Shown here: positions 10,778-11,029 of the stretch, one piece after another | How the letters are laid out: each line of letters starts with the position of its first letter | Numbering within the stretch: the first letter of the stretch is position 1 | Sequence record: OP870146.1 | Direction: 5' to 3' (one strand) | Length of the DNA stretch: 64,000 nt | Source: Escherichia phage vB_Eco_F27 | Translations under genes and position numbers: made by a program | Notes under the pieces: generated by a model | What the model saw: the letters and a program-made list of their open reading frames with translations, nothing else | Databases searched by the model: none | What the model was told of the DNA's origin: nothing

Positions 10778-10854
10778 TGGTCGAGACAGAAGGATTCTAA
10801 CCTTCAACCTACGGATTAGAAGTCCGTTGCTCTATACAATTGAGCTATGCCTCG
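10778..10854 (-). tRNA. tRNA-Arg (anticodon UCU), 77 nt, CCA encoded
   Basis: Manual cloverleaf: acceptor CGAGGCA/TGTCTCG, D-stem GCTC/GAGC, anticodon stem ACGGA/TCCGT with loop CTTCTAA, T-arm GAAGG-TTAGAAT-CCTTC, ACCA 3' end. Confidence 0.85.
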
Positions 10855-10954
10855 ATGATGCGGCTTTGGGTGTTTCAGTGTTACTCGTTTGTAGGTTCTA
10901 CTTTTAACCCTTATTCGAACAACTTACCTACCTAAGAGCGTACTCACCGCGAAT

Positions 10955-11029
10955 TGGTGGCCCTGGCTGGTTTCGATCCAGCTACCTATCAGTTATGAGC
11001 TGACAGCTCTCCCATTGAGCTACAGGGCC
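10955..11029 (-). tRNA. tRNA with CAU anticodon (elongator Met, or Ile2 if lysidine-modified), 75 nt, CCA encoded
   Basis: Manual cloverleaf: acceptor GGCCCTG/CAGGGCC, D-arm GCTC-AATGGGA-GAGC, anticodon loop CTCATAA, T-arm GCTGG-ATCGAAA-CCAGC; ends resemble E. coli tRNA-Ile2. Confidence 0.85.

Follow-up and report, generated by a model that had tools for sequence, protein, structure and literature searches.

Among described systems, those closest to the locus considered here are the tRNA regions of bacteriophage T4 and its relatives. In T4, the RNAs known as species 1 and species 2 are released by the tRNA-processing machinery. RB69 has two tRNAs (Nolan et al. 2006, PMC1524935), as do four of five new Mosigvirus isolates, one Met and one Arg (a 2025 paper, PMC12656860), and every T4-like genome that encodes tRNAs has one with a CAU anticodon that carries the signatures of isoleucyl-tRNA synthetase (IleRS) and is modified to lysidine (Nolan et al. 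2006, PMC1524935). Structured RNAs that keep company with tRNAs have been described elsewhere as well: the theta ribozymes, which resemble the ribozyme of hepatitis delta virus (HDV), are associated with tRNAs (PMC10879173), and the bacterial Y RNA YrlA mimics a tRNA (bioRxiv 10.1101/312249). I consider here a locus with two tRNA genes in a stretch of 64,000 nt (the window) of the DNA of Escherichia phage vB_Eco_F27 (OP870146.1), an RB69-like T4 relative of the genus Mosigvirus, and in particular the 100 nt that separate the two genes.

An original prediction, made from the letters of this stretch, held that the locus consists of two tRNAs, forming a minimal codon-compensation set, and a spacer that may be a decayed tRNA. 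The tRNAs are as described; the spacer is something else. It contains a 91-nt module belonging to a widespread RNA that is in none of the RNA family databases searched and is undescribed in the literature found. Read in this way, the locus is a predicted tRNA operon on the minus strand of an RB69-like phage, and its RNA genes number three rather than two. Both tRNAs lie on the minus strand, an orientation absent from the original prediction, so that the order of transcription is from high to low coordinates:

10955..11029, minus strand: tRNA with a CAU anticodon (10995-10997), of the Ile2 (lysidine) type by its predicted identity, CCA encoded (ARAGORN; Rfam, 62.4 bits)
10951..10954, minus strand: linker AUUC, 4 nt, from the CCA end of the CAU tRNA to helix P1 of the module (sequence)
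10860..10950, minus strand: structured RNA module, 91 nt, permutation type A (model R1 and covariation)
10855..10859, minus strand: linker AUCAU, 5 nt, from the 3' end of the module to the 5' end of tRNA-Arg (sequence)
10778..10854, minus strand: tRNA-Arg with a UCU anticodon (10818-10820), CCA encoded (ARAGORN; Rfam RF00005, 71.1 bits)

The Spacer as a Structured RNA

The elements of the module, all on the minus strand, are as follows:

10946-10950 with 10860-10864: helix P1, GCGGU/GCCGC
10936-10938 with 10884-10886: helix P2
10927-10931 with 10891-10895: helix P3, GUAGG/CCUAC
10917-10919 with 10896-10898: helix P3a, UUC/GAA
10899-10916: the 18-nt loop GAAUAAGGGUUAAAAGUA, which caps P3a
10905-10910 with 10878-10883 (overall 10878..10910): pseudoknot of the loop segment GGGUUA with UAACAC (from pair counts)

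The fold is read from an alignment of 18 copies (A2), each in the sense of the tRNA strand, which is also the basis of a covariance model (R1). Over the 22 pairs and 18 sequences, 97.2% of the cells hold a canonical pair, as compared to 72.4% in shuffled alignments, and none of 500 shuffles reaches the observed value. Two-sided changes are seen in 16 of the 22 pairs, and when the partners are slid by one to three columns as a control, pairing falls to 27-41%. RNAalifold independently returns P1, P2, and P3. The helices differ greatly from copy to copy: elsewhere P1 reads UUAAC/GUUAA, CAGGU/ACCUG, or GCAAC/GUUGC, P2 is either CUC/GAG or CUG/CAG (SAG/CUS), P3 takes many other sequences, and P3a also occurs as CGC/GCG, among others. 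Conserved in sequence are the 18-nt loop capping P3a (consensus GAAnAAGGGUUnnnAGUA, present in the copy of the source phage) and the tail (consensus AGUAACCCYGAAAnACCC). R1 scores the copy of vB_Eco_F27 at 106.3 bits (E 4e-27) over model positions 1-91, with all helices paired. The comparison strongly supports a structured RNA with four covarying nested helices and a pseudoknot from loop to tail. The GAA at the base of the loop, facing AGUA, suggests in addition a sarcin-ricin-type S-turn.

The pseudoknot of the family joins GGGUUW to UAACCC in six pairs. The partner strand is UAACCC in mogra, in Ec3-ASingh, in 16 of the 17 other type-A copies of A2, and in all 84 of the 84 copies of the permuted type B described below; in PSTRCR_127 the partner is AAACCU, with a compensating AGGUUU in the loop. 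Since most of its pairs never vary, the pseudoknot rests on invariant complementarity together with this one compensated variant. The copy of the source phage forms five of the six pairs. A change from C to A at 10879 (a T on the plus strand) places a G.A mismatch midway along the pseudoknot, common to vB_Eco_F27, G2469, FL31, and AV118 and unseen outside these four among the copies examined; mogra and Ec3-ASingh keep the C. The other conserved positions and helices of the copy are all intact, and the only other difference within a helix among the Mosigvirus copies, a U.G pair of P1 that is U-A in Ec3-ASingh, keeps the pairing.

The decayed tRNA of the original prediction, for example a remnant of the tRNA-Asn that PhAPEC2 and ST2 have at the same junction, drew on real features: the spacer (10855-10954) is indeed 100 nt long and contains both a GTAGGT/ACCTAC inverted repeat and a TTCGAA segment. 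The inverted repeat, however, is helix P3 of a conserved RNA that is not a cloverleaf, and the supposed T-loop TTCGAAT falls apart into the 5' strand of P3a (TTC) and the beginning of the 18-nt loop kept across phyla (GAAT). The likeness to a T-loop lies in letters that are themselves unconserved, TTC being replaced in relatives by CGC, TAG, or AC with compensation on the opposite strand. Nothing like a tRNA turns up in the spacer on either strand, whether with ARAGORN or when 10000-12000 is scanned permissively against Rfam (E up to 10), and a forced alignment of the insertion with the tRNA-Asn of PhAPEC2 reveals no real similarity. To this may be added the identity of 75-85% between the spacer and DNA of unrelated phages, with compensatory changes. 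The idea of a decayed tRNA is wrong and may be taken as refuted for practical purposes. I also rejected a small protein, encoded by a plus-strand open reading frame (ORF) of 31 codons in the spacer: the changes compensate within helices, and the variation in length is not in threes.

Occurrence and Permutation of the Module

In sensitive BLAST searches, about 85 nt of the spacer match unannotated DNA in phages of different families, at the 75-85% identity just mentioned. These are T5-like phages of Klebsiella, Pectobacterium, and Proteus, T4-like phages of Pectobacterium, Providencia, and Morganella, the jumbo Klebsiella phages RaK2 and K64-1, and Vequintavirinae and Stephanstirmvirinae phages of Klebsiella and Erwinia. 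The matches lie in or beside clusters of tRNA genes, on the strand of the tRNAs. About 55 records of cultured phages, from at least five families, carry the module, and it is annotated in none. A strict pattern of the core is found in 28 contigs from bacterial genomes, mostly metagenome-assembled genomes (MAGs) of Verrucomicrobiota and Patescibacteria but including Solitalea koreensis DSM 21342, and at least 120 times in metagenomes, where more than 100 contigs have the module. R1 confirms 94 full-length modules among the matches listed from genomes and metagenomes.

Most copies in genomes and metagenomes are of type B, a circular permutation of the form found in phages (type A). The order in type B is P3a hairpin, P3 strand, AAAC, SAG, UAACCCC, GAAARAC, P1 hairpin (of variable size), CUS, UUAG, and the other P3 strand. 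P2 is CAG/CUG in 43 of the 84 distinct type-B copies and GAG/CUC in 41, with no mixed case, and P3 has 6-7 bp in 76 of the 84, in 64 distinct sequences. One contig, L180, has the order of type B and the junctions of type A, CAAAG-CC-GAAA-GG-UGAGUACG, and so provides a direct link between the permutations.

None of the 4227 models of Rfam 15 matches the module in either permutation, in a search of the window and contigs L007, L010, L041, L050, L053, and L060, and the same is true of short stretches of L045 and L056 searched at E up to 10, including 200-nt stretches with lax filters. Hammerhead, twister, hatchet, and pistol ribozymes and the known riboswitch classes were therefore set aside, since none gave an Rfam match in either permutation. 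Literature searches aimed at the module turned up no description of it, though it may be among the roughly 10,000 unnamed candidates in a catalogue of phage RNAs from 2023 (PMC10690425).

Judged by their surroundings, the copies are found in four carriers: between tRNAs, in a tRNA-like body, in P6 of a group I intron, and on a plain helix. The first is the arrangement of vB_Eco_F27, and gaps of 3-12 nt between the module and a downstream tRNA occur also in KP13-26, Stubb, and pEp_SNUABM_01. Over 119 distinct cores, 30 have a tRNA on the same strand within 1 kb, and none has one on the opposite strand. The plain helix can be long, as in L136 (13 bp). In the tRNA-like carrier, known from 11 copies, mainly of Patescibacteria, the module takes the place of the anticodon arm, and the rest of the body consists of a T-arm, a D-arm like that of class II tRNAs, and an acceptor stem of 7 bp. 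Covariation is seen in the acceptor and T stems. The ends of the RNA are at the acceptor stem rather than in the helix standing in for the anticodon arm; the copy in L059 closes with a discriminator A and an encoded CCA. The intron is that of Klebsiella phage VLCpiM5b (L012, ON602729.1), where P1 of the module is P6 of the intron and the other 83 nt of the module fill the P6 loop. Residence in group I introns is no general rule, as only the VLCpiM5b type of copy qualifies. Since an intron is absent from 20 other module loci, the module is a guest of the intron and not a part of its core. The group I intron model (RF00028) has no match in the 64-kb window, the vicinity of the spacer included.

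In Pfam scans covering 55 ORFs upstream of the module and 59 downstream, the neighboring genes have nothing in common from locus to locus, save for a synteny in Patescibacteria of a DHH gene, the RNA, and tsaD. A riboswitch with a conserved downstream gene was accordingly rejected, because the same scans show nothing recurrent outside Patescibacteria.

Several observations concern individual carriers. The intron of VLCpiM5b (886-1190; RF00028, 69.8 bits) is unannotated and interrupts the DNA polymerase gene, which the record gives as two separate coding sequences, both named DNA polymerase; KP12 (OM835951) appears to have the same arrangement. The Patescibacteria contigs L043, L045, L046, L050, L051, L060, L061, L070, and L131 have tRNA-Val(GAC), a DHH/DHHA1 phosphoesterase gene, the module-bearing tRNA-like RNA, and tsaD, and on several of them a large ORF beyond tsaD resembles, by eye, valyl-tRNA synthetase. 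This tRNA-like RNA is detected neither by ARAGORN nor by the Rfam tRNA model. I rejected the notion that its CUCAUAA is the anticodon loop of a tRNA with an intron: the type-B copies identify it as the conserved CUS-UUAG/AUAA junction, no pair of exons can be folded into an anticodon stem, and a search of the locus against Rfam gives no group I intron.

Transfer-messenger RNAs (RF00023) are found at L108 3080-3498 (83.6 bits) and L110 36-118 (58.4 bits), on contigs that have the module within dense arrays of tRNAs, which suggests phage-borne translation-rescue RNAs in module-bearing cassettes. The marine contig L127 has two type-B copies (5586-5681 and 6037-6112), about 450 nt apart, with the same outer helix and a different P3; that outer helix recurs in L074, L087, L135, L138, L154, L163, and L177. 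In the cyanobacterial MAG contig L041, the module (1134-1222 in the RNA sense; locus 6779-6867, minus strand) comes directly after a gene for the RNA ligase RtcB, and at one other locus the downstream ORF matches RlaP, a family of the RNA-repair pathway. These are single cases, both of them touching on RNA repair.

The Two tRNA Genes

ARAGORN finds exactly two tRNAs in the window, as the original prediction had it, and the covariance models of Rfam, at gathering threshold, find the same two and nothing else. My own count covers 64 kb; the corresponding statement for whole genomes rests on PMC1524935 and PMC12656860.

I aligned the CAU tRNA with ileX, metT, and metZ of E. coli K-12 and with tRNA-Ile of T4. 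The alignment bears out the resemblance to tRNA-Ile2 that had been noticed in the acceptor ends, for the determinants are those of ileX: G1-C72, C4-G69, C5-G68, C29-G41, G27.U43, A37, A38, and A73 are all common to the two. The anticodon loop is a 7-nt CUCAUAA that includes A37 and A38, and the acceptor stem, GGCCCUG/CAGGGCC, has the 5' strand of T4 tRNA-Ile (that of ileX is GGCCCCU). The IleRS identity set is reportedly A73, C29-G41, and U12-A23 (attributed to Nureki et al., 1994, which is reference 40 of PMC1524935). All three are present, U12-A23 being non-discriminating, as it is also in metT. The pairs C4-G69 and C5-G68 are positive determinants for E. coli TilS (PMC1635315), and metT has U4-A69 and A5-U68 at these acceptor positions. 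The CAU tRNA has none of the features of an initiator: G1-C72 stands in place of C1xA72, the anticodon stem GUCAG/CUGAU lacks the three consecutive G-C pairs, and C11-G24 and U12-A23 replace the initiator's A11-U24 and G12-C23. E. coli metZ has all three of these initiator features (definition from PMC1635315). When compared by BLAST to 5,426 E. coli genomes, the CAU tRNA matches only genes annotated as tRNA-Ile.

By these identity elements, the CAU tRNA is of the Ile2 (lysidine) type and neither an initiator nor an elongator tRNA-Met, and the label tRNA-Met given by ARAGORN and in GenBank is thus the usual mislabel. That automatic label and the CAT anticodon itself are what speaks for an elongator or initiator tRNA-Met; set against the paired G1-C72, an anticodon stem without three G-C pairs in a row, C11-G24 with U12-A23, the contrast with metT in the acceptor stem, and the acceptor strand held in common with T4 tRNA-Ile, such an identity is highly improbable.

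Both tRNAs have peculiarities. The T-loop of the CAU tRNA (T-arm about 10963-10979) is AUCGAAA, with A54 and A60 replacing the usual U54 and pyrimidine, a pattern typical of eukaryotic initiator tRNAs. MM02 and PhAPEC2 have the same allele, and RB69 has a T4-like one, UUCGAAU, without an encoded CCA, so there are two alleles of tRNA-Ile(CAU) at one locus within the genus. The tRNA-Arg has U19 in its D-loop, AAUUGUAUA, and A56 in its T-loop, UUAGAAU, which together look like a compensated substitute for G19-C56, the universal tertiary pair; another allele of this tRNA, with GG and C56, is found in PhAPEC2 and Ec3-ASingh. The tRNA-Arg is nearly identical to that of RB69 and has almost nothing in common with that of T4 outside the anticodon loop.

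As for the role of the pair, tRNA-Arg(UCU) would read AGA, and the CAU tRNA would read AUA once host TilS had converted C34 to lysidine and IleRS had charged it, as established knowledge leads one to expect. Over 71 non-overlapping ORFs of the window, AGA occurs 7.7 times per 1000 codons (18% of Arg) and AUA 12.8 times (also 18% of Ile), as compared to 0.5 and 1.5 in a sample of six E. coli K-12 genes (1998 codons). Because both codons are rare in E. coli and at least threefold commoner in the ORFs of the phage, the pair would supplement the host by topping up its scarce tRNAs. The codon-compensation set of the original prediction is, on these several-fold differences, a reasonable reading, one already published for RB69 in 2006 (PMC1524935), and the tRNA part of the locus is ordinary.

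The two tRNAs may instead be kept mainly as insurance against the loss of host tRNAs to the anticodon nucleases of defence systems, an account compatible with the main explanation. Phage tRNAs that evade defences of this kind are said to have been described (van den Berg et al. in eLife, 2023, which is reference 57 of PMC12656860), and the tRNA-Arg and CAU tRNA are strongly unlike the host isoacceptors in sequence. However, I know of no defence nuclease that attacks E. coli tRNA-Ile2, and AGA and AUA are clearly enriched in the ORFs of the window. The correlation with codon bias is weak in T4 relatives other than T4 (Nolan et al., PMC1524935), a point in favor of the nucleases; I nonetheless consider it unlikely that they, and not codon use, are the main reason for the pair.

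The Locus and Its Close Relatives

Two ORFs border the locus:

11126..11416, minus strand: upstream ORF, homologue of T4 trna.2 (annotation of PhAPEC2, RB69, and T4, and ORF list)
10415..10759, minus strand: downstream ORF, homologue of RB69ORF150c (ORF list, and annotation of G2469 and PhAPEC2)

The trna.2 homologue forms the left-hand boundary that tRNA regions of the T4 type have conserved, and on that flank there are also homologues of T4 trna.3, trna.4, ipI, 57B, and 57A; the other flank has the RB69ORF150c homologue, whose Shine-Dalgarno sequence and ATG start 18 nt past tRNA-Arg. A simple scan of 10300-11500 finds no terminator-like site, the gap between tRNA-Arg and the downstream ORF included. 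Since such a site is absent between them, both tRNAs, the spacer RNA, and the downstream ORF probably form one transcript.

The region is 99% identical (BLAST) to Escherichia phages FL31, G2469, and AV118, of which G2469 is placed in the genus Mosigvirus. Between their two tRNAs, vB_Eco_F27, G2469, FL31, AV118, mogra, and two Ec-ASingh records have an insertion of 97 nt. Only six Mosigvirus records carry it, and RB69, MM02, and most relatives are without it; the gap between the tRNAs is 3 nt in MM02 and 6 nt in RB69, with no trace of the spacer block, and in PhAPEC2 and ST2 the tRNA-Asn sits at the junction of the Arg and CAU tRNAs.

A second difference lies upstream. The 516-bp RB69ORF151c, which in RB69, MM02, and PhAPEC2 separates the CAU tRNA from the trna.2 homologue and accounts for the extra length of these records in the BLAST table, is absent from the window (about 11030-11125), from G2469, and from mogra. 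The upstream flank of Ec3-ASingh is like that of MM02, which suggests that this phage has both RB69ORF151c and the RNA module; the two differences therefore look independent. The record of PhAPEC2 (KF562341.1, 1980-2213) has its three tRNAs annotated on the strand opposite to the true one. By sequence, all three lie on the strand of the flanking genes, and the middle one, labeled tRNA-Asx, has a GTT (Asn) anticodon.

A Proposed Role for the Module and Its Rivals

The whole is probably best explained by a tRNA operon whose Ile2 and Arg tRNAs flank a stable spacer RNA that is released and acts in trans. The module would be transcribed together with the tRNAs and then released from both sides: the CAU tRNA, which ends 4 nt before it, would have its own 3' end matured, and RNase P would cut at tRNA-Arg, which starts 5 nt after it, and so define its 3' end. 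The product would be a stable species of about 95-100 nt. Its conserved fold would let this RNA act on a target that widely differing hosts share, the candidates being a universal cellular machine or a small molecule. A stable, trans-acting module with a universal partner is favored because the same invariant unpaired nucleotides are found in Patescibacteria and in phages of enterobacteria, and all four carriers would give a folded RNA defined ends and stability. In the history of the locus, the module would have entered a sublineage of Mosigvirus as the 97-nt insertion, at the junction that holds tRNA-Asn in another relative, and the mismatch in the pseudoknot of vB_Eco_F27 would have arisen later.

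Several points weigh against this account. For 75 of the 119 cores, the DNA examined has no tRNA on the same strand, so processing linked to tRNAs cannot be the general route of maturation. The putative release of a stable RNA is deduced solely from the position of the module, and the lysidine at C34 of the CAU tRNA is a prediction. No minus-strand promoter lies nearby in a simple promoter scan, though I grade the promoter and terminator scans as uninformative. Folded thermodynamically on its own, the sequence does no better than its shuffles (z = 0.02) and fails to recover the structure drawn from covariation, a result I likewise treat as uninformative. The E. coli codon sample is tiny, and the rarity of the two codons in the host is otherwise general knowledge. 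Finally, the copy of the source phage breaks an otherwise invariant pair, and it may be impaired or beginning to decay.

The last point leads to a different view of the module in this phage, as a functionless hitch-hiker that was inserted at a hot spot for small-RNA cassettes and is beginning to decay. The few Mosigvirus records with the insertion, among relatives mostly without it, and the presence of tRNA-Asn at the same junction in PhAPEC2 are what one would expect of such a hot spot, and the C-to-A change of the four phages falls on a nearly invariant position where the sole other variant, that of PSTRCR_127, is compensated. Yet all else in the copy is intact, its score against R1 is the highest of all, and the one P1 difference, in Ec3-ASingh, preserves pairing, and I judge a mere passenger improbable. 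The main rival of the trans-acting RNA is a new small self-cleaving ribozyme, which would cut the polycistronic transcript, or whatever RNA hosts it, within the conserved junctions. Circular permutation of the same core, as is typical of the hammerhead and twister ribozymes, argues for it, as do the roughly 35 nearly invariant unpaired nucleotides across phyla, the size of 80-100 nt with a pseudoknot, and the scattered occurrence in phages and mobile regions without association with any gene. The order of elements in type B (pseudoknot-loop hairpin, P2 strand, partner, hairpin, P2 strand) is that of pistol ribozymes, and the copy in the loop of a group I intron is reminiscent of twin-ribozyme introns. 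On the other side, neither permutation is matched by any Rfam ribozyme, lax filters included; the junction that falls where pistol has its cleavage site is unconserved, varying in both sequence and length among the copies; and the tRNA-like scaffolds, one with an encoded CCA, and the position between tRNAs suggest an RNA that stays intact and accumulates. Self-cleavage therefore seems to me rather unlikely.

An aptamer, with a metabolite, an ion, or a signalling nucleotide and not a macromolecule as the partner that it soaks up or responds to allosterically, would also be in keeping with the extreme conservation of unpaired nucleotides in distant phyla and with a compact pseudoknotted fold, both of which recall the aptamers of riboswitches. 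At least seven genomes of Patescibacteria have the module 30-60 nt ahead of tsaD, and the copy in the DNA polymerase intron of one phage could gate splicing. However, no downstream gene recurs outside Patescibacteria, no expression platform is visible, and the many copies between tRNAs have nothing there to regulate in cis; even the Patescibacteria copies sit in a tRNA-like scaffold with no terminator or ribosome-binding-site hairpin after it. Ligand binding of this kind is distinctly unlikely, and a released RNA that acts in trans remains the account I prefer. More broadly, and tentatively, the module might represent an undescribed class of catalytic or ligand-binding RNA, for instance a new self-cleaving ribozyme or an aptamer that acts in trans, common to large virulent phages, Patescibacteria, and Verrucomicrobiota and repeatedly grafted, in both permutations, onto carriers as different as tRNA arrays, a tRNA body, and a group I intron.

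The tRNA pair adds nothing new: it agrees with the published picture of RB69-like phages, and the lesson it holds is that database labels of tRNA-Met can mislead. The spacer has more to offer, for it illustrates how apparent junk between phage tRNAs can hide a strongly conserved structured RNA, one missed by tRNA finders, by Rfam, and by the annotation of about 55 phages in GenBank. With its invariant unpaired nucleotides, its two permutations, and its at least four kinds of host RNA, it is a good candidate for experiment. Should catalysis or ligand binding be established for it, the short list of ribozyme and aptamer classes would grow by one; were it to bind a universal machine, it would represent an unknown means by which phages and ultra-small bacteria manipulate that machine. 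In the copies on a tRNA body, nature itself displays a functional RNA on a tRNA, and if they prove to be a grafted catalytic or ligand-binding class, they would be the natural counterpart of the tRNA scaffold engineered for the expression of functional RNAs.

Comparison with Known Systems

The tRNA genes themselves compare closely with the tRNA-Ile(CAU) locus of RB69 and T4, in position (between the trna.2 and ORF150c homologues), in both anticodons, and in the signatures for IleRS and TilS. Unlike RB69, with its T4-like CAU allele, vB_Eco_F27 has the allele with an encoded CCA and the T-loop AUCGAAA, as well as the 97-nt insertion.

For the spacer RNA, the nearest analogues by position are rnaC and rnaD (species 1 and 2) of T4, which are likewise not tRNAs, are about 120-140 nt long, adjoin tRNA-Arg in a tRNA operon, and are annotated as stable RNAs. 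However, they sit downstream of tRNA-Arg and not between the Ile and Arg tRNAs, rnaC has a tRNA-like T-arm that the spacer RNA lacks, and there is no likeness in sequence or structure. I rejected homology on the strength of a search of the T4 region with R1, filters off, in which the best match (11.9 bits, E 0.2) is not at rnaC or rnaD on their own strand; the only match overlapping them is antisense and, at 6.5 bits, due to chance.

YrlA and the theta ribozymes resemble the module in being structured RNAs, other than tRNAs, that lie beside tRNA genes or on a tRNA-like domain. The nested double pseudoknot of the HDV type is not in the module, where the two ends pair with each other and the loop with the tail, and an HDV-like (theta) fold was rejected on this ground and for want of an Rfam match. 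As to YrlA, no Ro-binding helix was recognized in the module, and again there is no Rfam match.

Phage group I introns often carry ORFs for homing endonucleases in the P6 loop. The module of VLCpiM5b fills the P6 loop in the same way, whereas the locus of vB_Eco_F27 has no intron.

In architecture, the module may be set beside the self-cleaving ribozyme pistol (RF02679). The pistol consensus has a hairpin loop in a 6-bp pseudoknot with a downstream strand and a P2 spanning a second hairpin, all in less than 100 nt, and it occurs in phage-rich metagenomes. The module resembles this consensus in the pseudoknot of its hairpin loop, in a P2 that spans a second hairpin, in size, and in its occurrence where phages abound; it differs in the extra helix P3, in conserved junctions that are much longer, in a consensus sequence of its own, and in having no match to the family in Rfam.

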